In this document: positions 10,870-41,219 of the stretch, in pieces
Layout: each line of letters opens with the position of its first letter
How positions within the stretch are numbered: the first letter of the stretch is position 1
Source: Bacillaceae bacterium
GTDB taxonomy: Bacteria > Bacillota > Bacilli > JACDOE01
Direction: 5' to 3'
DNA: 64,000 nt
NCBI GenBank assembly: GCA_017656255.1
Contig: JACDOE010000010.1
Coordinates: forward strand, 36,400-100,399
Translations under genes and position numbers: made by a program
The notes under the pieces: model-generated
The model's database searches: none
Told to the model about the DNA's origin: nothing
Seen by the model: the letters and a program-made list of their open reading frames with translations, nothing else

Positions 10870-10917
10870 ATTATCACCCCATTATAAAACTCTTTAATTA
10901 TTATCTAACTCGACAAA

Positions 10918-12818: not shown

Positions 12819-12823
12819 CGGTA

Positions 12824-13534
12824 TCACCTCACGAATTGAAAGTATCCGTTTCTCCCTAATATCCATAATAAATAGTCCATCTTACCTAAAGGCACTCCAA
12901 TCTTCAAGCAAATAATTCGTAATGCTTCTTCATATTGTAAGTAAACCTTTTCTGTTATGTTTTTAGGAATATTATATCCTAAGTAACCAAGAAATCTTAG
13001 TATATGGATATCCAGTACTGCACAATCATTATTAAATCCTGTATTCCTTAATAGCCAACTAGCTGATTTCATGCCAATACCTGGACATTCACATAGCCAT
13101 GTTCTAGCATCAAATGAATTAAGTTCATTAAGTTTATCAAATAATCTCCAGTGACAGTTCTCCCAAAGCCAATATCCAGCCTTGGATATAACCTTAGGCT
13201 TCGTTTCCACAAATCTATATTTTCTGAACTGGCCGTTACAAGTAATGGGATAAAACTGCTTTTTTGATAACTCTCTCTTTATTACATTTTCAATTATATA
13301 TAAGTTAGATATAGAGGAATAATATTTTGCTTCGATTAACCCTTTATTCTTTAATACATGTAAACCTGATTTGTTTAACTCATAACTGATTCCAAATCCT
13401 CCAAGAACTACGAAAAAAAATTCATCTATAACTTGTTCATTAGATTTTGAAACAAACGAAAACTCTCTTTCAATTGCAATACCATAAGTTTCCCAAAGTT
13501 CTTTTAACACATTGAATGCTCTAGTATTTTCCAT
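12824..13534 (-). CDS. Ogg-type HhH-GPD DNA glycosylase-like protein
   Basis: Helix-hairpin-helix with Lys (CPGIGMKSASWLL) followed by an Asp motif (VLDIHILR), matching the 8-oxoguanine glycosylase/AP lyase pattern. Confidence 0.6.
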   Translation of the reverse strand: MENTRAFNVLKELWETYGIAIEREFSFVSKSNEQVIDEFFFVVLGGFGISYELNKSGLHVLKNKGLIEAKYYSSISNLYIIENVIKRELSKKQFYPITCNGQFRKYRFVETKPKVISKAGYWLWENCHWRLFDKLNELNSFDARTWLCECPGIGMKSASWLLRNTGFNNDCAVLDIHILRFLGYLGYNIPKNITEKVYLQYEEALRIICLKIGVPLGKMDYLLWILGRNGYFQFVR

Positions 13535-13540
13535 ATCACT

Positions 13541-13891
13541 TTACGCCTCTACCTCTACTGTAACCTTCGGGTCATGTTGATTCCCTTCTTTTTTTATTAC
13601 AACCCCCTTGTATTCCCACCCTTCTTCAATACATTTTAAGAGCCAACTGTATTTTGGAGGAACGACCCCTATACTAAAATTATCTTTTTCTTTTTTTACT
13701 TCCATGACCGGCAATGTATCATCATTTCTTAAGATAATAGACACTTCATCATTCACAGAAACATTTCTCCACACTGCTTTTTGATTCTCATTAACAATTA
13801 ATAAAATTGTAACTTTTTCACCGCATCTATTTACTGTTTTTCCAGTTCCTCCTCCAAAACCACCAAATGATGAAAAGCCACCACTTCCCAT
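13541..13891 (-). CDS. Small protein with glycine-rich N-terminus (unknown function)
   Basis: 116 aa; N-terminal GSGGFSSFGGFGGG; strong RBS (TAAGGAGGA); first or second gene of the block B operon. Confidence 0.4.
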   Translation of the reverse strand: MGSGGFSSFGGFGGGTGKTVNRCGEKVTILLIVNENQKAVWRNVSVNDEVSIILRNDDTLPVMEVKKEKDNFSIGVVPPKYSWLLKCIEEGWEYKGVVIKKEGNQHDPKVTVEVEA

Positions 13892-14024
13892 ATAAATCCT
13901 CCTTACTAGTTATTTTTTTTTTTGCAATCTTTATAATACTCCAAAACTATTTATATTTAAATTAAATGAAATCTCATTTTGATCACTTCTTTTGTAAATT
14001 GTCTAATGTGCTTAGAATATGTTA

Positions 14025-14450
14025 TTATTTCTCTAGACCAAATTCTCTTTTTAATTTATTAAAGTCATATTCTTTTATTTCGATTGGGATACTAAGGTTC
14101 TTAAGTTTTGACATCAAATCGCTTTTATTAACAACAGGTTTGTCCTCGTAAACAATTGCGAATATCAATTTAAAATTATTTATTGAAGCACTGTCTAAAT
14201 TTTTAGCTGTCTGATATAACGATTCAATAACATTACGAGTTAACTTACCTCGTTTATTATATTTTATCTCAAATCCATAAGTTGAATTATCAGTTTTACT
14301 AATACCATCAATTTCAATTAACTTATCAGAAGATTTAAATGCCATGTGTCTCTGAATAGGAATTTTAAATTCTTGTTCAAGTTTCCTAAACACCAAATCT
14401 TCAGCTAAAAAGTATTGCATTTTGGGATCAACAGTCACTTTGGAAGGCAT
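14025..14450 (-). CDS. Hypothetical protein, possible PD-(D/E)xK-like fold
   Basis: 141 aa; spaced D...E-x-K residues (IEIDG, FEIKY); weak RBS; in-frame open sequence upstream without an ATG suggests possible truncation. Confidence 0.3.
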   Translation of the reverse strand: MPSKVTVDPKMQYFLAEDLVFRKLEQEFKIPIQRHMAFKSSDKLIEIDGISKTDNSTYGFEIKYNKRGKLTRNVIESLYQTAKNLDSASINNFKLIFAIVYEDKPVVNKSDLMSKLKNLSIPIEIKEYDFNKLKREFGLEK

Positions 14451-15283
14451 GTCTAACGTACCCGCTTTATCCTCTTCAATATTATTATCACTAGAAGATT
14501 CTTCAAGCTCTGCTTCTGCTTTCTTTCTTTGTGAATCACTAGTTAATTTTAAGAAATTCCCTTCATCCTTAAAATCACTTGGCGCATATAATTTGGTATG
14601 ATAAAAATCACAAGTCTATAAAATGTAAATAAAACAAGTAAAGGGAAAATTACTATGAAACACACAAGGAACCATTTTTGAGAAACATTTAATTCCGAAC
14701 TAAATTGAAGTACTAATGCTGCTATTCCATAAATTAGTGATATAAATAATGCAATGATACCTAAGGGGTTCTTTGTAAAACCTGATGCACTTCTCGTGAA
14801 TTCTATTATTATCGCTCACCTTCCTTGTAAAAATTTTAAAATGATGCCAACGTTACTCATTCTTAATACCAATCCAAATCATATCCGTGGACAAAAATGG
14901 CTGGAAAATATAAAACATGTCTGAGTATCAAAAAATTAATCTTTTAATATAACATTCTTCTCTTTTTTCTCATTAACTCCTCCTAGCTTTTGTGCACACC
15001 AATATATTAAAAAACAATCTTCAAAACTATACTTACTCCTTTTAGATCAAAGATCAAAAAATCCCTAACAAAAAAATTAGTGTTTATTCTCAATTGTATT
15101 TCGGTAAAAAAACAGATAATCCCTTTTAGGACAAATAAAAAATAATTAGTAAGGATATCACTCTATACTATATACTTATCTGAATTAATAGGTTTAATTG
15201 GTTTTATAATTATCTTCTTTTAGCTATTTGAAACCCCCCCTGACCCAGCACCACACCAGCATTCTTCCGACATCGCTTCGTGT

Positions 15284-15561
15284 TCACAACCTCTTGACGA
15301 TATGCGCCACCAGGCGAAGGTTATGTTCGATCAGCATATTTCGCGCCTCAACATCTCCCTGTTCCATCAAGCGTAAGTATTTCTCCTCGTCTTCTTCCGA
15401 CAGTGGCTGGGGAAAGGCATTGTTCTTGACGTAGGAGACGAACAGAATCAGTTCTTTGTACAGAAGCGCCAGTAACCCGAGCAGTCCAGACACCCGATCC
15501 CACCTCCAGGAATAGTGCTTCATTTATGCCTATTCCCTTTTGGGCTTGTTTGTGTCTGTAC
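15284..15561 (-). pseudogene. sigK: Orphan sigK 5' fragment (36-bp leader plus codons 1-77, then VKRL-stop)
   Basis: 15292-15561 matches 8654-8925 of the intact sigK with 4 mismatches, all synonymous or in the leader; homology ends at codon 77/78. Confidence 0.85.
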
Positions 15562-15742
15562 CGGAGATTTGTTTTTGCTCTTTTGTTAAAAACTGTTTAA
15601 GCATTTTTAACACTAGCGTTCTCAAATAAATTTAATGTTTCTGTCCTTCACTTCTTTTTTCTACAAGTAAACAAACATCCCGCAATACCTTAATAGTAAT
15701 GCGGGATATTATGAGAACCTTTTAGACATACCCTTCTTTACC

Positions 15743-18346
15743 TTATAACCTCGGGTCAATTTCTTTCTCTTTACTTACTTCAAATAGCATGTTAGCAACC
15801 ACCTGTTTATATTTATGATCTGACTCATTTATTTTATCTAAATGAAAGGCCAACATCTCTTTCCCAAGTTTGAATTCATTGATAGAGGTTTTTAGTTTCT
15901 TTGAAATATTTTTTTGCTTTAAAAGCTTGGCATATTTGTGTGGAAAGCGATAATCATATCCATAAACAATGGTTAAATAATCTGGATTGCGAACTTTCAT
16001 ATAAGGGGCAGTATCATCTGCCAATTTTTCAGGTTTAATCACGACACCTTCCATTTTTCTTTCTGTTGTCAAAGTCTTAAAAAAGGTTAAAGCTTTTTCA
16101 TAATAATCCTGTTCGTTTAAATCGATCAACATAAATTCATCATCAGATACAAACTTAAAAATTTCCGATGTTGATTCTGCAGGGATGATCTCTTCTCCAT
16201 TTTCCTTGACCATTTTTAAAATATTAAATGGTTTATAGTTAATCTCATCATCCTTTGCATAGAGCTCGATTTGTTCATGATATTTTTGATGGGCTTCCAC
16301 ATGTTTTTCTATTGGTTCATATGACTTTAACATAGTTTGCAACGCCTTATAAGTCTGGTAAGTGGCACCGCCAAACTTTTTAATCAAATCTTTCTTAGAC
16401 ATTGTTTGCTGATCGACTTCATAGTCACTTGATTTATATTGCTCAACAAGTTTTTGAAAGTGGGCATCAAAGCCTTGCTCCTTTAAAAAATCCAACTCTG
16501 TTTGTAAAGCTCTGTCTATAGTCCTAAATTGCTTTTCAATCAATTCCTCTCCCAAAATAGACCAGGGCAGTAATTCACCATCAAACACGATTGTTTTTAT
16601 TTTATTCTCTTTCATGTAATCCGAAAATTTATTTAACAGATTATCATATACCGGAGACAAATCCACTTTCTTAATTTTAAATCCATTTCGACTCACTGCA
16701 TAACATTGATCTAGTTCCCTTGCTAAGTAAATGTTACATCTTGACCCCATGTACTTCGGTTGCAAAACCACTTTATGGACGCCTTTTCTCTTAAAATACA
16801 ACAACCCCTGTTTTAAAGATTCCAATTCATTGCTATCCAAATCTTTGTCAGCCGGCGACATGGTACCAGAAATATAATTAATCTTATTTTTCAAGACATA
16901 ATTAAGGCGCTTTTGGTCCTGTTCATGTAAATCCTCGATGTTAACATGTTTATCTCTTTGTTTAAATAAAGTAGGTAAAGGTTCGTTCCAGTATTTACTA
17001 GTGCTTGTAATTCGCTGCTGTTTAAAAAACGGTCTCCAGGAGTCAATCACAACAGAAGAAAGAACATTTCCATTGGCAGCTCCCGTATCAATGTTAATCT
17101 TATTTTTAATTTGGACTATTTCTTTTACAGCAACATGTCCAAAAATATGATACGGATGATTTCCAACACTCTCTGACTCCAGAAAGTGCAATTGCTCCTC
17201 GTAGGGTTTTTCTCGATCAAGAACAAAGCTTCTTTGCTTTTTCAGAGACGTTTTATCTAACTTCCCTATATATTTGTTTTGACACGGAGCATGTGTCACA
17301 TAAAAGGAAGGCTTTTGTAATCCAATATACCTGTAGAATTCTTTCGAAGATTCAACGAGTCGGAAAAATTTGTGTTTTAAATCCTCATCCTTTTCAAAGA
17401 TTTCTATAGAGTCAAAGTAGTTGTCTAGTAAACTTGAATCTACTGAATTCTTATCAATTTCACCTTTCAAGTATTTGTAAACAAAATTCTCATGATTTCC
17501 TTTTACAAGCACAAAATGATCCATATTTTGTTCAATAAATTCTACCGTCTCTTTGGTAGCATTTCCTTTGTCAATCCAGTCTCCGTTAAGAATAATTTTA
17601 TATTCATCCGTTTTTTCAGTGGATAAAATACGATTATTTTCAATATTAAACCCATAGCTGATAAGCAGCTTTTTTAAATCAGCCACTTTTTCATGAACAT
17701 CTCCAACAATTATATATTTGTGTTCCTGCGGCAAAATATGACTGAGATAATGATCTAAATCCTCTATCATAATTTTATAATTTGCATTCGGTTCATTGGT
17801 ATCAGGGTTATAGAAATCCCGCTCCCTAATTTTGTGTATTCGACGAAATTTTGACTTTGAAATTTGTTTCAGAACCTCTCTTTTGAGACGAGTGACATGA
17901 TTTGAAATTAATCGTCTTGAACCACCTGAAGCATAGAAATCTTCTCTATTTTTAAAATCAAAAAGTATAGCTTCCAGGTTATATTGCTTTTCTTTAGCAA
18001 TTTCCATGATTTGCTCACGGAATTCTTCTGAAAGGCCAATTGTATCAACAATGACGAACTCGGCGTTAATTGGAAATGACGTAACGGCTTTTAGTTTCTC
18101 AAATAAAATATGAAAGGCTTGTTCGCTGCTTTCCATCATAATTCTGTCATGTTTGTCATATTCATGTCCCAAAATATCCTGCCTGATTTCATCAGAGGAA
18201 ATATATTGAACATTGGTTTTAAAGCCCCGATCCTTATCCTGAATAGAAAGTTGAGGCAACAATATTTCTTTAGCAAATGTTGATTTACCGGAATTAGTAG
18301 CACCAATTAACATAAATATGGTATGCATATTTGTTTTTAATTCCAT
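15743..18346 (-). CDS. pnkp: Polynucleotide kinase-phosphatase (Pnkp): kinase, metallophosphatase and ligase-like domains
   Basis: 867 aa; P-loop GATNSGKST; calcineurin-like GDVHEK and GNHE motifs; C-terminal domain with a KYMGSR lysine motif; size and order match bacterial Pnkp. Confidence 0.8.
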   Translation of the reverse strand: MELKTNMHTIFMLIGATNSGKSTFAKEILLPQLSIQDKDRGFKTNVQYISSDEIRQDILGHEYDKHDRIMMESSEQAFHILFEKLKAVTSFPINAEFVIVDTIGLSEEFREQIMEIAKEKQYNLEAILFDFKNREDFYASGGSRRLISNHVTRLKREVLKQISKSKFRRIHKIRERDFYNPDTNEPNANYKIMIEDLDHYLSHILPQEHKYIIVGDVHEKVADLKKLLISYGFNIENNRILSTEKTDEYKIILNGDWIDKGNATKETVEFIEQNMDHFVLVKGNHENFVYKYLKGEIDKNSVDSSLLDNYFDSIEIFEKDEDLKHKFFRLVESSKEFYRYIGLQKPSFYVTHAPCQNKYIGKLDKTSLKKQRSFVLDREKPYEEQLHFLESESVGNHPYHIFGHVAVKEIVQIKNKINIDTGAANGNVLSSVVIDSWRPFFKQQRITSTSKYWNEPLPTLFKQRDKHVNIEDLHEQDQKRLNYVLKNKINYISGTMSPADKDLDSNELESLKQGLLYFKRKGVHKVVLQPKYMGSRCNIYLARELDQCYAVSRNGFKIKKVDLSPVYDNLLNKFSDYMKENKIKTIVFDGELLPWSILGEELIEKQFRTIDRALQTELDFLKEQGFDAHFQKLVEQYKSSDYEVDQQTMSKKDLIKKFGGATYQTYKALQTMLKSYEPIEKHVEAHQKYHEQIELYAKDDEINYKPFNILKMVKENGEEIIPAESTSEIFKFVSDDEFMLIDLNEQDYYEKALTFFKTLTTERKMEGVVIKPEKLADDTAPYMKVRNPDYLTIVYGYDYRFPHKYAKLLKQKNISKKLKTSINEFKLGKEMLAFHLDKINESDHKYKQVVANMLFEVSKEKEIDPRL

Positions 18347-19618
18347 TTACTTTTCACCTCTTGCTTTAACCAAAACTCCCTGAGTGGTATAAACCCCGTC
18401 TACACAATCGCCAATACTTAAATGATGAATCTCAAAATCTCGTTCATCAAAAATCTCACTTATCCATTGTTTAAATTCATTTGTCCCCATTTCCCATTTA
18501 TGATCTTCATGCCGATATTCATCCAGGGAATAATACTTATTAAAATCATGATTTGGAGTCGTTATAATAATGGATTCAAAATGAATGTCATCAAGAATTG
18601 TTAAAATTAGTTTTTTAGCCTCATCCTTCTCCATGTGTTCAATGACTTCTGTAAGGATGACATCAACTAATTCCCCATTGTAATCTTCAATAAAATCCTC
18701 AATGGATCCATAAGTTAATATATTTTCAATACCCCTTTTTTTAATTCTTGCATCCAGCGAACGAATGATATCTTCATCAATGTCAATGGCATAATAGTAT
18801 TTGTCACCTATACTTTCGGAGAAAAGAAAGGCATAATAACCTTCCCCACATCCAACATCAACAATTGGTTTGTTGAAGGGTAATAACTTTTTTATCGCTT
18901 CTCTTCTTTGGTGAGCTGTATGTCCGTAAGAAAAGTTTATGTCATACCTTTGTGTTTCTTCCAGGCTTTCTTTAAATTTTGAAAATAATTTCCTGCTGGT
19001 AAGTATGTTTCGTGCAAACAGATACCTTATAAAAAACGGAGCATCCAGGACTTTAATTTGATTAACATACTTTTCAATCAAACTATCTGTAACATCAAGG
19101 TATTCGTTACCTATTAAAGATAAAAATAAAAACAATAGATTAGCTGTATTCAATAAATCATAAATACTTTTGTTCGTTTTGATTTTAATTGAATAGCTCT
19201 TGTGAGATTGATGAATCATTTCGATAGAGAAATCCTCAAAATGTTTGCTAAAAAAATCTATATATCTTGGTAGTGTGATATGAACCATATTCACAAATAA
19301 TTCATTTTCATATCCTTCAAGATCATTATCATACCGGTTTTTGATTGTGGAATTAAAGAATTCTGTCATTGCGTTTAATGGAAAAAGAGGTGTATTATAT
19401 CTTGAAACATTTAGATATTCAAAGCTTTCTTCTTTATGTTGCTTGTAAGATATCTCGTTGTCAGCGTCCTTAAAATATATATTGTAGGTTTGATCATCAG
19501 AATACCAGCCAAACGCAATTCCCTGTCTGACTGTACGCAACATCATGCCTGAAGCTGGATTTTTGCGTATTAAAAAAGAAAAGTGCGGATTCGTTGATTT
19601 TAACTGAACAATAGCCAT
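18347..19618 (-). CDS. hen1: Hen1-like RNA 3'-terminal ribose 2'-O-methyltransferase
   Basis: 423 aa; C-terminal class I MTase motif (VDVGCGEGYY); stop abuts the pnkp start. Confidence 0.7.
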   Translation of the reverse strand: MAIVQLKSTNPHFSFLIRKNPASGMMLRTVRQGIAFGWYSDDQTYNIYFKDADNEISYKQHKEESFEYLNVSRYNTPLFPLNAMTEFFNSTIKNRYDNDLEGYENELFVNMVHITLPRYIDFFSKHFEDFSIEMIHQSHKSYSIKIKTNKSIYDLLNTANLLFLFLSLIGNEYLDVTDSLIEKYVNQIKVLDAPFFIRYLFARNILTSRKLFSKFKESLEETQRYDINFSYGHTAHQRREAIKKLLPFNKPIVDVGCGEGYYAFLFSESIGDKYYYAIDIDEDIIRSLDARIKKRGIENILTYGSIEDFIEDYNGELVDVILTEVIEHMEKDEAKKLILTILDDIHFESIIITTPNHDFNKYYSLDEYRHEDHKWEMGTNEFKQWISEIFDERDFEIHHLSIGDCVDGVYTTQGVLVKARGEK

Positions 19619-19773
19619 CTACTTTCACTCCTGTTATTTCCCTCAATCATTTTCCAATAAACCAATAAACTTTAATTGCTATACTAACCTGATTCCCAGT
19701 TCAAAAGAATAATCAAATAAAATATGAAAAGAGGAAAAATGTAGTCCCCTTTTCCTAGTGCTTGGTAAAAATA

Positions 19774-21105
19774 TCATGCTTTTGAAGATATACAACACAA
19801 CATAAAGAGACCAATTATGAATCCATATAAGATTAAAATCCAGTAGCATAAACTTAACACATACTTTCTTTTGATTCGTCGTCTCATCTGAATCCAATAT
19901 TCAATTATAGAGGCTTTAAGTAATATTCGGACATAAAAAAATTGATATATCATAACTAGCAATATAATCCCCGCTGTCATTATTGTCGCAAGTAACAACT
20001 TGAACCAAAAAGAAACAGTTTGAATATCAATCATCATAATAAATAGTAATATGCTGCCCCCTGTTCCTAATGCAATCAGTAACAGCATAGATAAAGAAGC
20101 AATAATTCTTTTAGATAGGGAAATATGGTCAATATTTAACGTTTCCTCCAAAACTTCTTTGTTCTCCTCATGATTTTTTAGTTCGTCAAGATTTTCAATA
20201 CCTCTTAAATCAAAAAAGTCTCTAAACTTATCTAAAAACCACTTAGCTATATCATGTGCATCTTTTTCAAGTTCTTCAGAACGAAGAGATAATTGGATAT
20301 ACTTTTCATCTTTATCTGTCGTGTCTTCAATAACACCTTTAACTCCCTCTCCCCTTCTATCAATCTGGATATACATAAGTAATTGATCCTCTTTAATTTG
20401 AAAAATTATCTGAATTTCATCCATCTTATCCCATAGAATTTCCTTTATCGGTTTAAAATCGTATATAAACATAAAAGGTTTCTCATCACTATAGGTATAA
20501 AAAGAGTTGAAATTCATTCTCATATTATCAATAGACACATGGGATTCTGTTTTTAAATTCTTTTTATATCCTTGCCAATTTTTAAACTGATACAAAATGT
20601 AAGATAATGAAAAACCAAGTTCTTTCTGAAGAGCTTCAATTACTTTTTGTACCCATGGATGAGGGAAAACATTAATTTCGTTATATTCCTTCCAATTTGG
20701 CCACTTGTCAAGGGAGCATATCGTGTCAATCGATATATGAAAGAATCCTTTAGAAACCAAATCCTTATCTCCATTTTCTGATTCTTTTACATTGTGAACG
20801 GCAATAGGGGTATCATAGGGAACCTGAAAAGAAAAGGAAAATTCTAATTTTTCACCAATTTCAATTTTACGTTCTTTTGCAATCGTAGTTTTTAACAGTG
20901 GGACACGAGAATATATTAAGTCGTCACGGGTATCCATTTTTGTTGTAATCTGAATGACTAATTCCTTAATTATTCTTTCCTGTATTCCTCCCTGAACTAT
21001 TACTTTGCCCGATACTTGTTCACCGGGGCGGTAATAATTTTTATCCAGAATAGTCTTGATTGCTATATCTCCATGTCTTAGCCTCCAAAGCTTTTTTCTT
21101 AACAT
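19774..21105 (-). CDS. Spo0M-like (arrestin-like) protein fused to a C-terminal multi-pass membrane domain
   Basis: N-terminus DKNYYRPGEQVSGKVIVQGG resembles Spo0M; the C-terminal ~130 aa are strongly hydrophobic. Confidence 0.45.
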   Translation of the reverse strand: MLRKKLWRLRHGDIAIKTILDKNYYRPGEQVSGKVIVQGGIQERIIKELVIQITTKMDTRDDLIYSRVPLLKTTIAKERKIEIGEKLEFSFSFQVPYDTPIAVHNVKESENGDKDLVSKGFFHISIDTICSLDKWPNWKEYNEINVFPHPWVQKVIEALQKELGFSLSYILYQFKNWQGYKKNLKTESHVSIDNMRMNFNSFYTYSDEKPFMFIYDFKPIKEILWDKMDEIQIIFQIKEDQLLMYIQIDRRGEGVKGVIEDTTDKDEKYIQLSLRSEELEKDAHDIAKWFLDKFRDFFDLRGIENLDELKNHEENKEVLEETLNIDHISLSKRIIASLSMLLLIALGTGGSILLFIMMIDIQTVSFWFKLLLATIMTAGIILLVMIYQFFYVRILLKASIIEYWIQMRRRIKRKYVLSLCYWILILYGFIIGLFMLCCISSKA

Positions 21106-21664
21106 ATTTTCACCTACTCCTTAAAAGCCTTTTATCAATTTCATATTCTACAAATTTCAACAATTACCTTTAAGTAGAAAAGGCATAAAGAAAGGAGATA
21201 AATATTGCCGCTAATCCCCATGGCTAAATAATGGGCCAAAAGAGAGTAAGATTGCAGATTGTCCTTATTATTATTTTGATCTGGCCAGTACATATCAGGG
21301 TGCTCTATAAGATATTCCTTTTAATCTTTGTAGTCGAATCTTTTGATACCCCCCATCTGAACTCTCGGAAGTGACAATTTCGATGTTAGCACCTAAATCT
21401 TTTAAACGGTTATATAATTATATCCCTTGATAACATTCTTAGAGCTATTTCAAATGTCCCCGATGTCGTTTATAATATGACTACCTTTTCTTATAAACTT
21501 CTTTTCTTCTGCTTTTTGTAGAATATGTTTTAGGTTAACTTCATAATATAAAAACTTGCCCCCAAACAAATTTTTCTCTAATGGTCTATTCCAGGTAATA
21601 CATAATCTGAAAAAGGCCAACCTTTTGTAGGAAAGCCAAACATATAAATACCCTCCCTAAAAAA

Positions 21665-22810
21665 TCAAAAAGATAAACCTTTAAAACCATGAGAGGTGGA
21701 AATGGCCAGGATTCTGTCAGATTCATCCACCTCATGTTTAAGTTGTGTGATAGCACTCCAGATCGTGGCTGACGACGTTTCCAAATACAATCCATATCTC
21801 CCTAATTCCTGTTGACTTTGCAACGCATTTTGAAGGTTAACGACTTTGACCAGGCCCTTTGTATCAGTAATCGTCTTTTTTAACTGATACGTTACCGTTG
21901 ACCCACTGATAGAAGGAAGGCCATCAGATACACCTGCAAAATGATTTCTGTAATCTTCACCTTTTATGACACGCGTTAATCTGGGAAACGGTTCCACCGC
22001 TACAAATTTTGGGATTTCATTAATCCATCCAAGTTCTCTGGCGTCCCTGAAACCGCGATATATGCCCCAGATTAAATCGCCTCGAGAAGCTGGCGCTACA
22101 ATAATACTCGGCAGCGTCTCTTTCAGTTCTTCCATAATTTCATAGGCAATCGTTTTATATCCTTCAACCCCAAACACATGACTGCCGACGGGTGGGTTAA
22201 TGAAATTTGTTGCAGGATACCACCCTTTGTTTGAAACGGCTTTCTCCATACAGTCCCAGCGACTCAATGAAGTTTGCGTATAAATCATTTTGGCTCCGGT
22301 CATTTTAATCGCTTTAGAGTATGTCTTCTGAATGGCATCCGTAGCGATAATGACACATTTCAGACCAGAAGCAGCACTATAACTGGCTATCGACACGCCG
22401 GCATTGCCTGATGAAGCGGCCACCACTGTCGAATACCCCATGTTCTTCGCTCTTGCCATGATGAGAGGACTCATTCGATCTTTGTGAGAACCGGTCGGAT
22501 TTTGAGCTTCATTTTTGATCCAGACATGGCGAACACCGATTTGTCTGGCTAAATCCCTTAATTCCATGATAGGAGTCGATCCTTCTCCCAATGTAGGAAA
22601 AGAACGATAAGGCAATAAATCGGTGTATCTTTGTAAGCCTCTTTGTGACCGGTCAATATTAACTTTTTGATAATCATACAGAGCAGTCAAACTGGCCGGA
22701 TACCCTTCTTCCAGACAAAGAGGACATCCTTTGAAATAATCTTTGACTTCAAAGATAGAATGACATCGAATGCATTGGAAACCGATCATATTTTTGTTTA
22801 ATTGATACAT
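21665..22810 (-). CDS. PLP-dependent threonine synthase-like enzyme with N-terminal zinc ribbon
   Basis: PLP-lysine motif TGSHKDR, glycine-rich SSGNAG loop, N-terminal CxxC...CxxC; start set at the internal Met with a GGGGA RBS. Confidence 0.55.
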   Translation of the reverse strand: MYQLNKNMIGFQCIRCHSIFEVKDYFKGCPLCLEEGYPASLTALYDYQKVNIDRSQRGLQRYTDLLPYRSFPTLGEGSTPIMELRDLARQIGVRHVWIKNEAQNPTGSHKDRMSPLIMARAKNMGYSTVVAASSGNAGVSIASYSAASGLKCVIIATDAIQKTYSKAIKMTGAKMIYTQTSLSRWDCMEKAVSNKGWYPATNFINPPVGSHVFGVEGYKTIAYEIMEELKETLPSIIVAPASRGDLIWGIYRGFRDARELGWINEIPKFVAVEPFPRLTRVIKGEDYRNHFAGVSDGLPSISGSTVTYQLKKTITDTKGLVKVVNLQNALQSQQELGRYGLYLETSSATIWSAITQLKHEVDESDRILAISTSHGFKGLSF

Positions 22811-23068
22811 GTTTAAAATCCCCTTCATGGAAATATGTTTTGAATCAAAACCCCAACAAAACATATACCGGATAAAGCTAAGCCAGGCCGCCATTCACAT
22901 CCCTGTCAGACCCGGACCTTATTCCATGCCTCCCTGCACTATTTGACAACCACCCAGTAAAATCCTTCCTTATAATGATTAAATCCCCATCAACCTAAAT
23001 ACATCCAAAGACTATACCGAAGTATAATATCTTCCACCGGTGCACCGTGATACATTATTGACAAAGAG

Positions 23069-23440
23069 ATGTTTTCAGGAGAGAAACGGAAACATCAATT
23101 AAAAGGAGAGATCATTTTGCTTGAAGAAAAAGTGGAAACGAAAGACGTTGAGGAAAACAAAGCGATGGGGATACTGGCTTACATTTTGTTTTTCATCCCC
23201 CTGCTTGCTGCCAGAGAATCAAAGTTTGCTATGTACCATGCCAACCAGGGGCTAAACCTGTTCTTAACCAGCGTGATCATAAACGTTGTCGGTACTATCA
23301 TTCCCCTTCTGGGCTGGCTGCTCATCCTGCCGATCGGAAACCTGTTTGTCATCATCCTGGCCGTCATGGGAATTATTCATGCGGCAAAAGGGGAAACCAA
23401 ACCGCTCCCCATTATCGGAAAATACAAACTGCTGAAATAA
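23069..23440 (+). CDS. Small membrane protein (DUF4870-like)
   Basis: Hydrophobic segments and a YHANQG motif; true start probably an internal Met. Confidence 0.4.
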   Translation: MFSGEKRKHQLKGEIILLEEKVETKDVEENKAMGILAYILFFIPLLAARESKFAMYHANQGLNLFLTSVIINVVGTIIPLLGWLLILPIGNLFVIILAVMGIIHAAKGETKPLPIIGKYKLLK

Positions 23441-30276: not shown

Positions 30277-32463
30277 TTGGTCGAAAGGATTGGAACAATG
30301 TCGGAAAACACGAACGAAGCTATCTTTTCTCTCGATATCGGAACCAGAAGTGTTGTCGGATTGATTCTGGAACCGGAGGACAACGGAAAAATGAAAGTGG
30401 CCGGATGTGAAGTGGTCGAACATGAGGACCGCTCCATGCTGGATGGACAGATTCACGACGTCGTCGCCGTATCTAAAGTCATTCGGCAGGTCAAGGAAAA
30501 ACTGGAGAAAAACCACGGCCCTCTTCACAAAGTAGCGGTGGCGGCAGCCGGGCGCTCCCTGAAAACCATCCGGGCCTCGGTGGAAAAAGAAATTAACGGC
30601 ATGCCGATACTAACCCGGGATGACATCCTTGCCCTGGAACTATCGGCGGTCCAGGATGCTCAGAAACAGCTGGCTGCAGAACAGGATACCCACGACCAGC
30701 ACGAATACTACTGCGTCGGCTACAGTGTGGTTCATTACTATCTGGATCATGAGGTTATCGGGAACTTAATCGATCAACGCGGCGAAACGGCAAGCGTCGA
30801 AGTCATCGCTACCTTTTTGCCCCGGGTGGTGGTCGATTCTTTGCTCGCTGCCCTGAAACGGGCCGATCTGGAAATGAACGCTCTGACTCTGGAACCGATC
30901 GCGGCCATCAATGTCCTCATCCCCTCCACCATGCGTAAATTAAATATTGCGCTGGTGGACATCGGGGCCGGCACCTCCGACATTGCCATCGCGGAACACG
31001 GCACGATTACCGCCTATGGCATGGTTCCCAGTGCCGGCGATGAAATTACAGAGGCACTCAGTGAAGCGCTGCTGCTCGACTTCACGATGGCGGAACAGCT
31101 GAAGCGGAACCTGAATGATCCGAAGCAGGAAGAATATAAAGTCACCGACATCCTCGGCTTCGAACAAACGATGAGCAAGACGGACATTCTGGATCAAATC
31201 GACGAACCGATCGACCGTCTGGCCCAATTAATCAGTGATAAAATCCTGGAATTGAACGGCAGGGCGCCCCAGGCCGTCATGTTGATCGGAGGCGGAAGCC
31301 AGATTCCCCGGCTGACAGATAAAATCGCGAAAAAAACGGGACTCTCACCGAACCGGGTGGCGGTGCGCGGTGCCGATGCCCTGCAGAATACCATTCACAA
31401 ACACCGGAAAATCAAAGGGCCTGAATTTGTCACACCGGTTGGTATCGCCGTGGCAGCGACGCTTCATCCGGTCAAATATTTGACAGTCACGGTCAATGAC
31501 AATATTCTGCGTATTTTTGACCTGAAAGAACTGACCATCGGCGATGCCCTGCTGCATGAAGGCATTGATATCAAAAAACTGCACGGACGTCCGGGATTGG
31601 CTGTAACAATCCAGGTCAACGGCAAACTTAAATTTATTCCCGGCGGGCACGGTACGCCCCCGTCCATTCTTTTGAACGGTGAACCTGCCCATCTGGATAC
31701 GCCCATTTCCGAAGGGGACAGTATCACGGTCATCAAGGGCGAAGATGGTGCGGACGCCAGCGCCAGCGTCAAGGATGTGATCGATGAATTGACGACACTC
31801 GATATCACCATCGACGGCCGTCCCTATTCCCTGGCACCTCTCATTCGGGTCAACGGGGAACCGGCCACACTGGAAACTTCACTGACAGACCGGGACGAAC
31901 TGGATATCCACCTCCCTTCCACGCTGGAAGAAGTAGTGGATGAATCGGAGCTTCTGAGCTGGGATGATATTATTGCCAGCTACACGTACCGTTTAAACGG
32001 ATCAGAAAAACAGTTGAAATGGCAAAAGGCCACGATCTATGTGAACGGAAGAAAAGCCGGACGCAAAACACCGGTCAAAACCGGTGACCGGATTACGATT
32101 GAACCGCAACCATCTGGTCAGCCGTTATTGAAAGATGTGATCCCGGCGGACCAACTTTCCGGGATGATGACACCGGTCACTTTTAACGGTGAAAAGGTGA
32201 ACATCCACGACCTGCAGTACAGCATCATCATGAACGGTGAGAAGGTCTCTCCTGATGAGCCGCTGGTTGACGGGGCGACGATCCGGATTGAACGTCATGA
32301 AGACCAGGGGCTCATTTTCAGCGATGTTTTCCGTTACGTTGAAGTGGATACCGGGCAACCGCCCGGCAAAAAAAAGCTGGTGATTCTCGTCAACGGGGAA
32401 CCCGCTGATTTAAACACCCCGATCAAGGCCGGCGATCATCTGGAAATGAGATGGGAAGCCTGA
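30277..32463 (+). CDS. Actin-like ATPase domain protein (FtsA/PilM/EutJ-like) with C-terminal ThiS/MoaD-like repeats
   Basis: N-terminal SLDIGTRSVVGLI and VAVAAAGRSLKT phosphate-loop-like motifs; at least five C-terminal repeats of VNGE-x(n)-GD-x-I type. Confidence 0.45.
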   Translation: MVERIGTMSENTNEAIFSLDIGTRSVVGLILEPEDNGKMKVAGCEVVEHEDRSMLDGQIHDVVAVSKVIRQVKEKLEKNHGPLHKVAVAAAGRSLKTIRASVEKEINGMPILTRDDILALELSAVQDAQKQLAAEQDTHDQHEYYCVGYSVVHYYLDHEVIGNLIDQRGETASVEVIATFLPRVVVDSLLAALKRADLEMNALTLEPIAAINVLIPSTMRKLNIALVDIGAGTSDIAIAEHGTITAYGMVPSAGDEITEALSEALLLDFTMAEQLKRNLNDPKQEEYKVTDILGFEQTMSKTDILDQIDEPIDRLAQLISDKILELNGRAPQAVMLIGGGSQIPRLTDKIAKKTGLSPNRVAVRGADALQNTIHKHRKIKGPEFVTPVGIAVAATLHPVKYLTVTVNDNILRIFDLKELTIGDALLHEGIDIKKLHGRPGLAVTIQVNGKLKFIPGGHGTPPSILLNGEPAHLDTPISEGDSITVIKGEDGADASASVKDVIDELTTLDITIDGRPYSLAPLIRVNGEPATLETSLTDRDELDIHLPSTLEEVVDESELLSWDDIIASYTYRLNGSEKQLKWQKATIYVNGRKAGRKTPVKTGDRITIEPQPSGQPLLKDVIPADQLSGMMTPVTFNGEKVNIHDLQYSIIMNGEKVSPDEPLVDGATIRIERHEDQGLIFSDVFRYVEVDTGQPPGKKKLVILVNGEPADLNTPIKAGDHLEMRWEA

Positions 32464-32556: not shown

Positions 32557-32748
32557 TTAATAACACTCAGGATAATAACGGTACAACCACCCAAGTCCCA
32601 AAAACAAGATCGAGACGACACCCAGCGTCAACATACGTTCTGATAGTGAACCGTCAGCCATCAGAACCGGCCCCAGCCCGAAGAAGGCAACCAGTAACAG
32701 GCAAAATATAAAAATGAGGTGTACGAATAACCTTTTCACTTGTATCAC
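32557..32748 (-). CDS. Small hydrophobic protein (hypothetical)
   Basis: 63-aa ORF with two hydrophobic stretches; no other support. Confidence 0.25.
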   Translation of the reverse strand: MIQVKRLFVHLIFIFCLLLVAFFGLGPVLMADGSLSERMLTLGVVSILFLGLGWLYRYYPECY

Positions 32749-32813: not shown

Positions 32814-33242
32814 TCAGATTTCGATATCTTCCGGTGGCCGGTCAGACAGATACAACAAATGGCTTACACACCGGCAATCTGAAGAGCCAAATCCCCTTGC
32901 CGGCATACTCGCCCTATTTTCGTTCTTCACATGTTCACACAGGCTGCATTCTGTCCACACGTCTCCGGAAAACGTCTCCACCCGGACAATGTCCGCATGC
33001 GGTCGCAGATAATCCATGTGCCATCGCTTCTTTTTCTCTCTCTTTAGATGGCGTTCAATTCTCGCTTTAATATGCTTACGGGCACTTCCGATATAAGCAT
33101 AGAATCCGGGCGGAAAATGAAAGCTTCCCAGTTTGCCGATTTGTAGCGTTTGATCCTGTGCCACATAAAGATGCAGGACATACAACTGATGTTCCGTGTT
33201 AATATCCATTCCAGAACGTACTCCTTTATACCTTCCGTTCAT
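32814..33242 (-). CDS. GIY-YIG domain protein (DUF123-like)
   Basis: GFYAYIGSA matches the GIY-YIG core; size typical of stand-alone GIY-YIG proteins. Confidence 0.5.
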   Translation of the reverse strand: MNGRYKGVRSGMDINTEHQLYVLHLYVAQDQTLQIGKLGSFHFPPGFYAYIGSARKHIKARIERHLKREKKKRWHMDYLRPHADIVRVETFSGDVWTECSLCEHVKNENRASMPARGFGSSDCRCVSHLLYLSDRPPEDIEI

Positions 33243-33504: not shown

Positions 33505-34425
33505 TTATCCTCTCGGCCCCGCCTGTTCTTCCCTGTTTTTCACCATGTTCATCCAGCGGTTATTGACACATTTTTTCTTGAATAGATTCCATTTATGGCG
33601 AATTTGATATCGCTGATTGATGCGTGTTGCAACACCCTGTTCCGGAAGTGGATACGGATCTTCAATCCCGGTCACAAATAGACTCACTTTAAAGCGTTGG
33701 CCGGGTTCATCCATCGAATAGGTGCCCATCTTCAGAATGTCCGCTTTGTGAAACAGGTCATTAAGACGGAGCGTCATGTGGCGAAAGGTATTCATGTCCA
33801 CCTCACGCGCATACCCGATATTGACGATCATATTGCGCCCTTCCGCATAATCCGGGGCCAGGTAAGGTGCCGATATGGCATACTTTAAAGGTTCATTGAA
33901 AGAGTCGCCTTCGATCGTCCGGATAAAAACCGGACCGTCATCTCCTTTCAACAGCGTTTTGATATCATGGACATCGATATTGATTTCACCGGATAAACGA
34001 ACCATCTCCTCTACAATTCGCACCGGGGCTTCTTCAAGGGATTCAATGGTCTCCTGGGCCTGCTTGTACGGCACCTCCGGGTCCATCAATTCCATCATCC
34101 CGTCACTGTCAAAATAAGTGACCGCGTCGCAGATTCCCTTCATCTGGTGGTACTGCATCACAGCCGTTTCAAGTCGCTTTTTTCCTTCAAACTTGAACGG
34201 AAACCGAAAGATGCCGATCAAAAAACCCTGCGTCTCTTTCAAACGGTACAAACTTTCCACCATCTCCTCCGTTTCACCCGGATTGCCGCCACGAAACCGG
34301 AAAAAACAGATGTCATCCGGTTCTATCTGAGAGACCTGCGACATATCCTTGTTACCCACAGACTGTTTAAAAATAAAGATGCTGACCTCTTGACCCATAG
34401 CCTGTCCCCCTTGCTTTTTATTCAT
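33505..34425 (-). CDS. Divergent FtsZ/tubulin-like protein with degenerate GTP-binding loop
   Basis: FPFKFEGKKR aligns with FtsZ RPFTFEGRKR; NIDVHDIKT matches the T7 loop NxDFxDxxT; the position of the GGGTGTG loop is GGNPGETE. Confidence 0.45.
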   Translation of the reverse strand: MNKKQGGQAMGQEVSIFIFKQSVGNKDMSQVSQIEPDDICFFRFRGGNPGETEEMVESLYRLKETQGFLIGIFRFPFKFEGKKRLETAVMQYHQMKGICDAVTYFDSDGMMELMDPEVPYKQAQETIESLEEAPVRIVEEMVRLSGEINIDVHDIKTLLKGDDGPVFIRTIEGDSFNEPLKYAISAPYLAPDYAEGRNMIVNIGYAREVDMNTFRHMTLRLNDLFHKADILKMGTYSMDEPGQRFKVSLFVTGIEDPYPLPEQGVATRINQRYQIRHKWNLFKKKCVNNRWMNMVKNREEQAGPRG

Positions 34426-34565
34426 TATATACGGAACAGGACGTAAAGAATGTCATCCCGGGTCGATGGCGGGGTTCTAGTTTTGCAGAATTTTGATGAA
34501 ACTGATTGTAATTCCTGATATACTCTAGTAACGAATAGATAATGACATAAATTGGAGGCATTGAC

Positions 34566-37296: not shown

Positions 37297-39033
37297 TTAC
37301 ATTTTGAATCGGGACAGGGACTGATTCAATTCTTCCGCCATCTGGGCCAGGTTCTCGGCCATGCTGTTGATCTCCTGCATGGACGCGTTCTGCTGTTCCA
37401 TCGAGGCAGACAGTTCTTCCGTTCCCGCGGATGATTCTTCCGTCACGGCAGCGATGTCTTCCACCGCTTTCACACCCTGTTCCACTCTTCCCGTAATCTG
37501 TTCCGTTGCCATCGACACCTGCTGGATCTTGCCGCCCATCTCCTGGATGATTGCCGCAATCTCTTCGAAGGTCTTGCCGTTGGTTTCGATTACTTCCGAA
37601 CCTTCTTTGACCTGATCCACCGCTTCCTGCATCACCGTACCGGCTTCTTCTGCTTCCTTCAGCACCGAATGAACGATATCGGCGATCTCATTGGTAGATT
37701 TACCCGCCTGTTCTGCCAGTTTCCGTACTTCATCAGCCACCACGGCAAACCCTCTTCCCTGTTCACCGGCACGGGCTGCTTCAATCGCTGCATTCAGTGC
37801 CAGCAGGTTGGTCTGCTCGGCTATTTCATTGATCACTTTCAAGATTTCACTGATCTCTTTCGACTTTTCACTCAGCGTAAACACCACATTGGCCGATTGT
37901 GACACTTTCTGTTCGATGATTTGCATCTGTTCGATGGACTGATGGGCACTTTCCGCTCCCTGCCTGGATGCTTCATCTCCCCGGCGGGAACTTTCTTCCA
38001 TCTCCGTGGCACTGGCATTAATCTGTTTGATCTCTTCGTCGATCTGCTGCATGATCTCCAGCGCACTGCCTGCCTGCTCCGCCTGTGTGGTAGCACCTGC
38101 CGCCAGTTCTTCGGTGGTGGCAGATACCTGTTCGATTCCCTGGGTGATCTGGTTGGACGAAGCCGTCAGTTCCTCACTGGAGCCCGTCACCTTCTCAGAA
38201 ATGGTGCTGGCATCCTTGATCAGGGATCTCAGGTTATCCACCATGGCGTTCATGGCCTCGGACAGCTGACCGATCTCATCTTTCGAACGCACTTTCATCT
38301 GCGAAATCGCCAGGTTACCGTCCGCCAGCTGTTTCATTTTCTCCGTAATCTGTACGATCGGCGTACCCATGCGTCCGGCAAACATATAAATCACCACGAT
38401 ACCCACCACCAGTGCAATACCGAGGGTCAGCATCAACACCTGCAGAATACGGGTCGCTCCGCTGTTATAGTCCTCCATGTAAGAACCGGCACTGATCACC
38501 CATCCCCAGTGAGGGTCCAGTTCGCTGTAAGAAATTTTCGGCGCCAGTTTATCGGGGTTATCGGGAAGCGGCCACTCGTAATAGGTGAAACCTCCGCCTT
38601 CCTGAGCCTTTTTAATAAAATCACGAATAAAATAAAAACCGTTTTGTGTCTGGAAATCCCACATGTTTTTCCCTTCTACTGCGGGATGAGCCAGGGTATT
38701 CCCTTTTTGATCCACAACGGTAAAGTACCCGCGGGCCCCCAGATCGATCGTCTTATCGACCGGGCGCTTGCCCTCACTGTTTTTTTCACCGAGAATCTGT
38801 ACTTTGACCCGCTCCTGAGCTTCTTCGAGGGTCAGGGTTCCTTTCTGTACTTCCTCATCCAGCGTGGCAATCATTTTTTTAACCATCCGTACATTATTCT
38901 GGAGTCCCGTCGCTCCGGCATCATTCAGCTCATTCTCGGCGATCTGATAGGCTATCACGCCGATGATGAGACCGGGTATCACCAGTAAAGCAAGGCTGAT
39001 CAAAATAAGTTTCGCTTTAATGTTAAGTTTCAT
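37297..39033 (-). CDS. Methyl-accepting chemotaxis protein 1
   Basis: 578 aa; periplasmic sensor domain, two TM segments, HAMP and conserved MCP signalling domain ([34 protein letters not shown]). Confidence 0.85.
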
Positions 39034-39479: not shown

Positions 39480-41219
39480 TTACATTTTGAATCGGGACAG
39501 GGATTGATTCAATTCTTCCGCCATCTGGGCCAGGTTCTCGGCCATGCTGTTGATCTCCTGCATGGACGCGTTCTGCTGTTCCATCGAGGCAGACAGTTCT
39601 TCCGTTCCCGCGGATGATTCTTCCGTCACGGCAGCGATGTCTTCCACCGCTTTCACACCCTGTTCCACTCTTCCCGTAATCTGTTCCGTTGCCATCGACA
39701 CCTGCTGGATCTTGCCGCCCATCTCCTGGATGATTGCCGCAATCTCTTCGAAGGTCTTGCCGTTGGTTTCGATTACTTCCGAACCTTCTTTGACCTGATC
39801 CACCGCTTCCTGCATCACCGTACCGGCTTCTTCTGCTTCCTTCAGCACCGAATGAACGATATCGGCGATCTCATTGGTAGATTTACCCGCCTGTTCTGCC
39901 AGTTTCCGTACTTCATCAGCCACCACGGCAAACCCTCTTCCCTGTTCACCGGCACGGGCTGCTTCAATCGCTGCATTCAGTGCCAGCAGGTTGGTCTGCT
40001 CGGCTATTTCATTGATCACTTTCAAGATTTCACTGATCTCTTTCGACTTTTCACTCAGCGTAAACACCACATTGGCCGATTGTGACACTTTCTGTTCGAT
40101 GATTTGCATCTGTTCGATGGACTGATGGGCACTTTCCGCTCCCTGCCTGGATGCTTCATCTCCCCGGCGGGAACTTTCTTCCATCTCCGTGGCACTGGCA
40201 TTAATCTGTTTGATCTCTTCGTCGATCTGCTGCATGATCTCCAGCGCACTGCCTGCCTGCTCCGCCTGTGTGGTAGCACCTGCCGCCAGTTCTTCGGTGG
40301 TGGCAGATACCTGTTCGATTCCCTGGGTGATCTGGTTGGACGAAGCCGTCAGTTCCTCACTGGAGCCCGTCACCTTCTCAGAAATGGTGCTGGCATCCTT
40401 GATCAGGGATCTCAGGTTATCCACCATGGCGTTCATGGCCTCGGACAGCTGACCGATCTCATCTTTCGAACGCACCTTCATCTGCGAAATCGCCAGGTTA
40501 CCGTCCGCCAGCTGTTTCATTCTCTCCGTAATCTGTACGATCGGCGTACCCATGCGTCCGGCAAACAGGTAAATGGCCACGATACCTACCACCAGCGCAA
40601 TGCCGAGGGTCAGCATCAATACCTGCAGAATACGGGTTGCTCCGCTGTTATAATCTTTCATATAGGAACCGGCAGCCACTATCCAACCCCAGTGGGGATC
40701 CAGTTCCGTGTATGCAATCTTGGGCGCAAGAGAGTCCGGGTCATCCGGAAGCGGCCAGTCATAATAAGTGAATCCTCCGCCCTCCTCCGCCTTCTTTACC
40801 ATATCACGGGCAAAGTAGTATCCGTCTTCTGTTTTTGTATCCCACAAACTCTCTCCCTCAAGCAGTGGATGTGCAATAAGGACTGCTTTTCGCGACATAA
40901 CAAAATAGTAACCGTTTTCACCAATGTCAATCGTTTTATCGATCGGGCGCTTGCCCTCACTGTTCATTTCTCCCAGAATCTGTACCTTCACCCGCTCCTG
41001 GGCTTCTTCGAGGGTCAGGGTTCCTTTCTGTACTTCCTCATCCAGGGCGGCAATCATCTTTTTTACCAGGCGGACATCATTTTTCAATCCCGTAGCCCCG
41101 GCGTTGTTCAATTCGTCCTTGGCAATCTGAAAGGCCGTCATCCCGATGATCAGGCCGGGGACCGCCAGCAAAGCAAGGCTGATTAAGATAAGCTTGGCTT
41201 TAATGTTGATGAGTTTCAT
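39480..41219 (-). CDS. Methyl-accepting chemotaxis protein 2 (tandem paralog)
   Basis: 579 aa; divergent sensor domain; 3' ~1 kb nearly identical to MCP gene 1. Confidence 0.85.

Follow-up and report, generated by a model that had tools for sequence, protein, structure and literature searches.

Growth of FtsZ filaments takes place at the plus end, where the C-terminal (T7) interface is exposed, and MciZ, MinC and MipZ bind this same interface (PMC9897490). Two divergent families within the superfamily of FtsZ and tubulin were described by Makarova and Koonin (2010): FtsZl1 keeps loops T1–T4, lacks T6-H7 and the FtsZ C-domain, and has a coiled coil and vWA operons, and FtsZl2 keeps T1, T4, T6 and T7, carries an extra C-terminal region of ~300 amino acids (aa) and is proteobacterial. 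In spore formers, the sporulation septum contains about half the FtsAZ filaments, controlled by the Spo0A-dependent FtsZ-binding protein SpoIIE (PMC8192124). We analyzed a stretch of 64,000 nucleotides from a Bacillaceae bacterium (contig JACDOE010000010.1, positions 36,400–100,399; hereafter the window), which carries on its minus strand a gene for a truncated FtsZ paralog. Judged by its motifs, this protein has lost the nucleotide pocket and normal top face of FtsZ and retained the bottom face with T7. We propose, with a rough probability of 0.5, that it is a Spo0A-induced pseudo-GTPase FtsZ, which would dock with its T7 face on the GTP face of canonical FtsZ and remodel the Z ring at asymmetric division. 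The gene comprises the following features:

33505–34425, minus strand: open reading frame (ORF) as mechanically listed, 306 codons (306 aa)
33505–34398, minus strand: coding region for the truncated FtsZ paralog (297 aa and a stop codon), which begins at the conserved ATG, M10 in the mechanical ORF
34405–34412, minus strand: ribosome-binding site AAGGGGGA, 6 nt ahead of the ATG at 34398

The mechanical ORF is nine codons too long. We place the true start at the second ATG (34398) because of the ribosome-binding site 6 nt upstream and because nearly all of the ~50 relatives have an ATG exactly 31 codons ahead of the [FY][FY]RFxGGN (FFRFxGGN) motif. The NCBI protein that is 100% identical to the window paralog (P0001) is 297 aa long, and the first ATG (34425) falls within the promoter −10 hexamer.

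The window ORF is a true FtsZ homologue, with a resemblance far beyond chance. It matched the NCBIfam ftsZ model TIGR00065 (E = 1.8e-14; residues 63–266 on profile positions 128–336) with a score of 53.9 bits, which does not reach the curated cutoff of 295.2, and the Pfam matches were also sub-threshold (Tubulin PF00091, 18.1 vs 33; FtsZ_C PF12327, 14.9 vs 27). A phmmer search against the PDB returned FtsZ chains, the best from Staphylococcus (E = 1.8e-15; query 34–257 on FtsZ 99–324); Staphylococcus and Bacillus FtsZ were the best sequence matches, and identity to the FtsZ of Salirhabdus euzebyi, a paralog-bearing relative, was 27% over 172 aa. The AlphaFold2 model, built with 24 family members as input (predicted local distance difference test 82.4, predicted template modelling score 0.79), showed a predicted two-domain tubulin/FtsZ fold, but with an incomplete N-terminal domain, and the top 50 Foldseek matches in the PDB were all FtsZ (E down to 1e-17; template modelling score 0.64 over 235 columns). 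These results bear out the initial annotation, which had proposed an FtsZ/tubulin-like protein from the strings GGNPGETE (aa 46–53), FRFPFKFEGKKR (aa 73–84) and SGEINIDVHDIKT (aa 145–157), all of which are present; the outcome named there as a refutation, no predicted tubulin/FtsZ fold, did not occur, since structure prediction returned an FtsZ fold. With canonical FtsZ (TIGR00065; PF00091 plus PF12327), the paralog shares the fold from S4 to S10, the T5 motif PFxFEGxxR, the T7 motif GxxNxDxxD and the C-terminal subdomain. Canonical ftsZ lies in the dcw cluster, whereas the paralog is a stand-alone gene outside dcw with a different promoter.

We then compared the motifs by alignment to the canonical FtsZ of Salirhabdus and B. 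cereus, with residue counts taken over 47 family sequences. The elements of the window protein are:

34312–34398, minus strand: short N-terminal segment of ~29 aa, one strand and one helix (strand 16–20 and helix 25–32 in the AlphaFold2 model)
34267–34290, minus strand: T4 tubulin-signature remnant GGNPGETE (aa 46–53), replacing GGGTGTGA in the alignments
34174–34209, minus strand: T5 region FRFPFKFEGKKR, aligned with FtsZ and common to both
34099–34113, minus strand: T6 position, FDSDG vs (V/I)IPND in aligned FtsZ, with the guanine-contacting Asn lost
33955–33993, minus strand: T7 loop and start of H8, SGEINIDVHDIKT, with the catalytic FtsZ motif fully retained
33508–33654, minus strand: C-terminal tail after GIEDP, basic, aromatic and predicted to be helical (helix 265–301 in the AlphaFold2 model)

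Relative to FtsZ, ~70 N-terminal residues are lost, together with strands S1 and S2, helices H1 and H2, and loops T1 (GGGGxN), T2 and T3 (GAGANP; GAGxxP). Family-profile positions 15–17 align to FtsZ residues 83–89, ~14 residues precede the equivalent of helix H3, and the N-terminal segment of ~29 aa occupies the place of ~95 FtsZ residues (S1-T1-H1-S2-T2-H2-S3-T3-H3). No family member has regained a T1-like loop. The T4 remnant reads GGNxSET in the family vs GGGTG(S/T)G in canonical FtsZ, retaining just the first two Gly (G46 and G47, 47/47; N48, 46/47; E51 and T52, 44/47), PND is changed to SDG at T6, and the guanine-contact residues of H7 are replaced. Eight T5 residues (F73, R74, P76, F77, E80, G81, K82 and R84) are invariant in all 47 sequences, as are N149, I150, D151 and D154 of T7 (NxDxxD), aligned with the canonical FtsZ motif.

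The replacement of the glycine-rich T4 loop by GGNPGETE, as first annotated, is therefore confirmed, and the alignment with FtsZ across T5–T7 also stands. The description of the nucleotide-binding loop as degenerate was right for T4, but the loss is far larger, since S1-T1-H1-S2-T2-H2 and T3 are missing altogether; the suggestion of a non-GTPase is supported by the absent T1–T3, the bare GG of T4, the SDG at T6 and the replaced H7 contacts. We conclude with high confidence that this is a pseudo-GTPase with an FtsZ fold, in which GTP binding, GTP hydrolysis and GTP-dependent polymerisation should, as predicted by motif analysis, all be lost. The C-terminus also departs from FtsZ. Family tails are 27–71 aa long (median 36 aa) with a median net charge of +6 and a KYKxLFRKWQ motif, and the DIPxFLR peptide, through which FtsA, SepF and EzrA bind, is absent from the paralogs; only canonical FtsZ rows of the alignment carry it.

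The family is small, isolated and previously undescribed. Among 5.8e9 clustered proteins, 32 clusters were found at 44–60% identity (242–319 aa, most 270–320 aa), and their members are labelled 'cell division protein FtsZ' in public records, though such proteins cannot serve as the division GTPase. When 1.84e9 representatives at 50% identity were searched exhaustively with a profile, two full-length representatives and two fragments were retrieved, after which E falls from 1e-126 to 1e-30 and ordinary FtsZ follows. The first match outside the family (1e-30; P0068, 840 aa) consists of two entire canonical FtsZ units with a proline-rich linker between them; the protein is a tandem FtsZ fusion of natural origin or else an assembly artefact. 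No intermediates between the family and FtsZ were found, the next matches being this tandem double FtsZ and canonical FtsZ fragments. The literature searched held no description of a truncated FtsZ paralog in Bacillales or of this family. Phage origin was considered and rejected, with just weak matches to phage FtsZ/tubulins.

Among 185,579 species, each represented by one genome, we found 53 loci, all in spore-forming Bacilli. Carriers include Ornithinibacillus, Salinibacillus, Salirhabdus, Evansella, Virgibacillus, Alkalibacillus, Piscibacillus, Alicyclobacillus and Brevibacillus migulae among others, and the search of the 5.8e9 proteins added Effusibacillus and Ferviditalea; the lineages include Bacillaceae, Alicyclobacillaceae and Paenibacillaceae, and B. 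subtilis does not carry the gene. One family member lies on DASQNU010000253.1 (L019), from a metagenome-assembled genome named 'Candidatus Bathyarchaeia archaeon'. Its protein is 95% identical to that of Brevibacillus migulae (L025) and its promoter is the same; the contig is almost certainly a mis-binned Brevibacillus-like sequence, not an archaeal one.

The paralog gene is always monocistronic, with a spacer of 140–400 bp ahead of it, and no conserved operon or neighbour gene was found in the window and at the loci of five other genomes. The gene stands alone, and any clue to its role therefore has to come from its own control region, which in the window contains:

34424–34429, minus strand: −10 hexamer TATAAT, including the first ATG of the mechanical ORF
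34445–34456, minus strand: −35-like ATGACA and, after it, ttCTTT, upstream of the −10 at a distance of exactly 21 bp and overlapping 0A-like box 3
34461–34467, minus strand: 0A-like box 2, ATCGACC, 5/7 to TTCGACA, 10 bp upstream of box 3
34476–34490, minus strand: upstream element TTCTGCAAAACTAGA, composed of 0A-like box 1 (TTCTGCA) and an AAACTAG extension, 22 bp upstream of box 2

Upstream of the paralog gene, the sequences of 49 loci align gap-free, with the consensus ttCAACAAAAcTAGT-N7-ttct-caACA-N5-TGACAa-n-cTTT...TATAAT-ggtgAAAA. A blind search for TTGACA/TATAAT pairs with spacers of 15–24 bp returned exactly 21 bp in 42/49 loci, and xTGACA-21 bp-TATAAT fits all 49/49. No sigma-70 promoter with a 16–18 bp spacer was found upstream of the window gene, and, in a comparison by eye, no promoter of the sigma-E, sigma-K, sigma-F/G, sigma-B or MerR type agreed with the spacing and conserved bases. 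Co-oriented heptamers that resemble the 0A box in reverse complement (the TTCGACA orientation) lie at −1, −11 and −33, counted from the −35-like hexamer, with distances of 10 and 22 bp between them. Heptamers matching at least 5/7 occur in 37/49 loci at −1, 19/49 at −11 and 27/49 at −33, compared with 1.5% of background positions, a 25- to 50-fold enrichment, although the loci are related and the counts are thus not independent; the boxes in the window match 4–5 of 7. The upstream element has the family consensus ttCAACAAAACTAGT, and its exact 11-mer ACAAAACTAGT (window 34476–34486) occurs 24 times in 658 kb, each time at the promoter of this gene (e.g., L020 4922). The commonest upstream heptamer, TTCAACA, is complementary to TGTtGAA. 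The 0A box has the sequence TGTCGAA, Spo0A binds pairs of TGTtGAA 3 bp apart, and the TGTtGAA variant was footprinted by Spo0A in phage Nf (PMC2731898). Published work describes the promoters of spoIIG and spoIIE as sigma-A promoters that Spo0A~P activates via weak 0A boxes.

We therefore compared the paralog promoters with those of spoIIGA at six control loci, obtained through SigE and FtsZ look-ups, using a two-block weight matrix built solely from paralog promoters. The B. subtilis-group spoIIGA promoter reads CTCGACA...CTCAACAttaATTGACAgaCTTTc, then 22 bp, then TATACT. In Salirhabdus salicampi, S. euzebyi, Salinibacillus kushneri, Tenuibacillus multivorans and the B. cereus group, the spoIIGA promoter has the form (A/T)TGACA-21/22-TATACT, and GACAAAA lies upstream. 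The spoIIGA promoter was the top matrix hit in 5/6 control loci, scoring 24.2, 25.1, 25.5 and 28.8 bits, and 11.1 bits in B. cereus, against a range of 20.8–33 bits for the paralog family itself and 18.1 bits for the best non-family match among 1.31 million background positions. In the three 7-kb loci scoring at least 24 bits, the second-best hits reached −3.3 to 5.0.

The two promoter types agree in layout. In spoIIG, a −35-like TTGACA lies 21–22 bp from the −10, as in the paralog promoters (21 bp), and a pair of weak 0A boxes spaced by 10 bp overlaps it (in the B. subtilis group, CTCAACAttaATTGACAgaCTTT), with a further box upstream, the same arrangement as in the paralog promoters, whose box layout is that of the CTCAACA-N3-ATTGACA of B. 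subtilis-group spoIIG. They differ in the −10 (TATAAT in the paralog, TATACT in spoIIG) and in the upstream box, which in the paralog is about one helical turn closer and has a conserved AAACTAGT extension. The 21/22-bp spacing (spoIIG 22, spoIIE 21) is reportedly, from work of Satola, Baldus, York and colleagues, a property of Spo0A-activated promoters with weak 0A boxes over the −35. Since the −35-like TGACA lies 21 bp from the −10 and is overlapped and preceded by helically phased weak 0A-like boxes, expression would depend on sigma-A and Spo0A~P. From this architecture, the gene has a spoIIG-type promoter that is most probably switched on by Spo0A~P at sporulation onset, and we regard Spo0A-type regulation as fairly likely overall.

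A scan of 1.3 Mb with the same matrix gave one plausible extra site, with other scattered hits unconvincing. This second spoIIG-like site (22943–22976, plus strand; TTGACA, 22 bp, TATAAT; 14.9 bits) lies in the window ahead of 23069–23440, which encodes a small DUF4870 membrane protein, and is possibly a further Spo0A-type promoter.

Control by another factor, either an OmpR/PhoB-type regulator or an unknown one acting at ACAAAACTAGT under some other stress, is an improbable alternative, and one under which the proposal for the protein could still hold. PhoP-like TT(A/T/C)ACA and WalR-like repeats are consensus sequences of OmpR/PhoB-type regulators. The repeats in the paralog promoters, 10–11 bp apart, are OmpR-family-like, TTAACA or TCAACA occurs in many loci, and the ACTAGT extension is not accounted for by a 0A box; yet the paralog-promoter matrix singles out spoIIGA promoters, including those in the same genomes, above 1.3 million background positions, and the 21–22 bp spacing and the TGACAnnCTTT core are common with spoIIG.

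Turning to the protein, we consider it probably a developmental modulator of the division ring. In FtsZ, T7 residues activate the hydrolysis of GTP bound by the next subunit. Because the T7 face of the paralog is intact and under strong purifying selection, and its nucleotide face is absent, docking on the nucleotide face of FtsZ would be expected: the paralog T7 face would dock on the GTP-bearing face of canonical FtsZ, either on free FtsZ-GTP monomers or at filament minus ends, and no subunit could then add on the crippled top face of the docked paralog. Several outcomes may follow. The paralog could sequester the face that an FtsZ monomer needs to join the plus end; it could cap or stabilise minus ends, or seed filaments that grow away from the cap; or N149, D151 and D154 could stimulate GTP hydrolysis in the bound FtsZ subunit. 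The effect on the Z ring might go in either direction. Expression from sigma-A and Spo0A~P would place the protein at sporulation onset, the time at which the Z ring is remodelled so that a thin, asymmetric septum can form, and the basic aromatic tail may attach it to membrane or a partner, replacing the lost FtsA/SepF-binding peptide. Read from the retained surface, direct action on FtsZ via the T7 face falls at, or slightly short of, even odds. A bolder version, by analogy with gamma-tubulin at microtubule minus ends, is doubtful: a natural developmental minus-end factor, tail-anchored and switched by Spo0A~P, would sit on the GTP face of the first FtsZ subunit, where it would act as a seed for polar Z rings or else as a cap that tunes treadmilling, and thereby contribute to a thin asymmetric septum. 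Such a factor would be the first regulator known for the nucleotide (minus-end) face of FtsZ and the first bacterial FtsZ-derived pseudo-GTPase.

Two other roles can be weighed on the same evidence, and both appear unlikely. First, the protein could be a decoy, a mimic of the FtsZ core that titrates binders of the H10/T7 region (MinC, MciZ-like) and so relieves polar Z-ring inhibition at sporulation onset. The retained C-terminal subdomain and T7 region are indeed the surfaces bound by MinC, MciZ and MipZ (PMC9897490), and the predicted expression coincides with the time when polar division must escape Min control; however, the invariant catalytic Asn and Asp of T7 are better explained by nucleotide contact than by inhibitor binding, and no partner gene is conserved nearby. 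Second, it could be an autonomous, nucleotide-independent scaffold, which self-assembles or binds membrane via the basic aromatic tail and serves spore morphogenesis without contacting FtsZ. The tail, conserved, helical and strongly positive, together with the lost FtsA/SepF-binding peptide, fits such a role, and the invariant T4/T5 remnants could mean a new top face; against this, a catalytic T7 motif is pointless without a nucleotide-bearing partner and is nevertheless invariant, and no T1-like loop has been regained in the family.

Several points weigh against a Spo0A-induced, T7-docking FtsZ derivative. On the promoter side, the 0A-like boxes are weak, mostly 5/7, and are counted across related loci; a 0A box does not account for the AAACTAGT extension, which is strongly conserved and may be bound by a different regulator; the matrix gives the B. 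cereus spoIIGA promoter just 11.1 bits; and the Tenuibacillus spoIIGA promoter was missed by the matrix despite its TTGACA-21-TATACT. The 21/22-bp spacing itself was confirmed on spoIIGA sequences; that it is diagnostic of Spo0A activation is reported from the work of Satola, Baldus, York and colleagues. On the protein side, T4 (GGN) and T5 (PFxFEGKxR) are as invariant as T7, which may reflect more than upkeep of the fold, for instance a site where some ligand still binds or a top face that still works. FtsZ binding by the paralog is a prediction. Du et al. 2018 reportedly found top-face mutants of FtsZ to be weaker inhibitors than bottom-face mutants, and a pure capping role might on that account need high expression.

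Selection on the gene is strong. Nei-Gojobori ratios of nonsynonymous to synonymous substitution rates (dN/dS) were 0.04–0.09 in every pair with finite, unsaturated dS, members from four families of Bacilli have kept length and start codon, and about 40 alignment columns do not vary. The assembly that carries the paralog also has canonical full-length ftsZ in S. euzebyi (GCA_902809875.1), Salinibacillus kushneri (GCA_900111405.1) and Tenuibacillus multivorans (GCA_900103915.1), and is named in many other carrier species, so that the initial annotation was justified in calling the protein a paralog. Because of the low dN/dS, the conservation and the coexistence with canonical ftsZ, we conclude that the gene is a maintained paralog, neither the division GTPase nor a pseudogene. 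That it is a decaying remnant or a mis-annotated broken ftsZ duplicate without function, as its truncation relative to FtsZ and its scores below the Pfam and NCBIfam cutoffs might suggest, is highly improbable given this selection, the conserved promoter and ribosome-binding site and the confident fold prediction, and the pseudogene reading is excluded by selection and conservation.

In the window, the paralog gene is flanked by a divergent M29 aminopeptidase gene and a DUF123/GIY-YIG-like gene, and a simple scan found no intrinsic terminator. A 728-aa protein encoded 1 kb away (30277–32463, plus strand) begins with an actin-like ATPase of the FtsA/PilM type (TIGR01174, E = 1.5e-27, below cutoff) and continues with several beta-grasp repeats resembling ThiS/MoaD (PF02597, E = 2.4e-13), an unusual architecture. 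Between this FtsA-like gene and the paralog lie two small genes on the minus strand, 32557–32748 and 32814–33242, for a DUF6954 membrane protein (63 aa) and a DUF123 protein with weak GIY-YIG similarity (142 aa). This neighbourhood is not conserved. A partnership with the FtsA-like gene was considered and rejected, as five relatives elsewhere have wholly different neighbours with no actin-like gene near.

Elsewhere in the window, a low-GC island at ~4000–22000 on the minus strand (0.31–0.35 vs 0.45–0.53 elsewhere) carries the bacterial RNA-repair pair Pnkp (15743–18346) and Hen1 (18347–19618), as well as Spo0M-like, HD-domain and QueC-like proteins, a fusion of PfkB kinase with nucleoside 2-deoxyribosyltransferase, and an Ogg-HhH glycosylase. 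The island probably arrived by horizontal transfer and serves nucleic-acid modification, repair or defence. Furthermore, two adjacent ORFs of 578 and 579 aa (37297–39033 and 39480–41219, both minus strand) have near-identical N-termini (MKL(I)...), a tandem duplication.

The switch from the medial, thick-septum divisome to the polar, thin-septum one is partly understood, with increased FtsZ and SpoIIE as the known factors. If our proposal is correct, a Spo0A-timed FtsZ derivative in several lineages of Bacillaceae, Alicyclobacillaceae and Paenibacillaceae would be a new, testable player in this switch. SulA (PDB 1ofu) also addresses the C-terminal/T7 face of FtsZ. Together with it, every characterised protein inhibitor of FtsZ named in the literature consulted (MciZ, MinC and MipZ) addresses the T7 face, and a selected protein that has that face alone should address the opposite, nucleotide face. 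The paralog would also offer a natural tool for studying the polarity of FtsZ filaments, the dynamics of their minus ends and the activation of the GTPase in trans.

FtsZl1, FtsZl2 and the paralog are alike in being divergent FtsZ-tubulin members that coexist with canonical FtsZ. The comparison with FtsZl1 and FtsZl2, which the initial annotation had suggested, was negative: both families keep loops of the T1–T4 region, a pattern of loss opposite to that seen here, and membership was rejected on motif pattern and gene context. In contrast to FtsZl1, the paralog lacks T1–T3, has T7 and the C-domain, and has no conserved operon; in contrast to FtsZl2, it lacks T1, its T4 and T6 are degenerate, its tail is only 27–71 aa long, and it is confined to Bacilli.

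The nearest functional precedent, by analogy, is ARC3 of plant chloroplasts, an FtsZ-derived protein that does not form rings and directly inhibits Z-ring assembly. ARC3 is eukaryotic, of independent origin and multi-domain (FtsZ-like, middle and MORN), and is regulated via MORN, PARC6 and ARC6, whereas no MORN or other extra domain was found in the paralog. In spore formers, the nearest precedent is MciZ of B. subtilis, a developmentally timed regulator of FtsZ filament ends that caps a polymerisation interface. MciZ is a 40-aa peptide of unrelated sequence that binds the plus-end C-terminal interface and is produced later, by the mother cell; for the paralog, we predict action on the opposite, nucleotide face and earlier production.

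FtsZ mutants engineered at the interfaces, as well as separated FtsZ domains, were reportedly described by Redick (2005), Osawa and Erickson (2005) and Du et al. (2018). Such laboratory top-face mutants are point mutants that still bind GTP and were used to define polarity, whereas the paralog is an evolved deletion under selection, a natural counterpart of the 'top-face-dead, bottom-face-intact' class of FtsZ. What is new compared with these systems is a member of the FtsZ superfamily that combines a selected deletion of half the GTPase domain with a developmental promoter.

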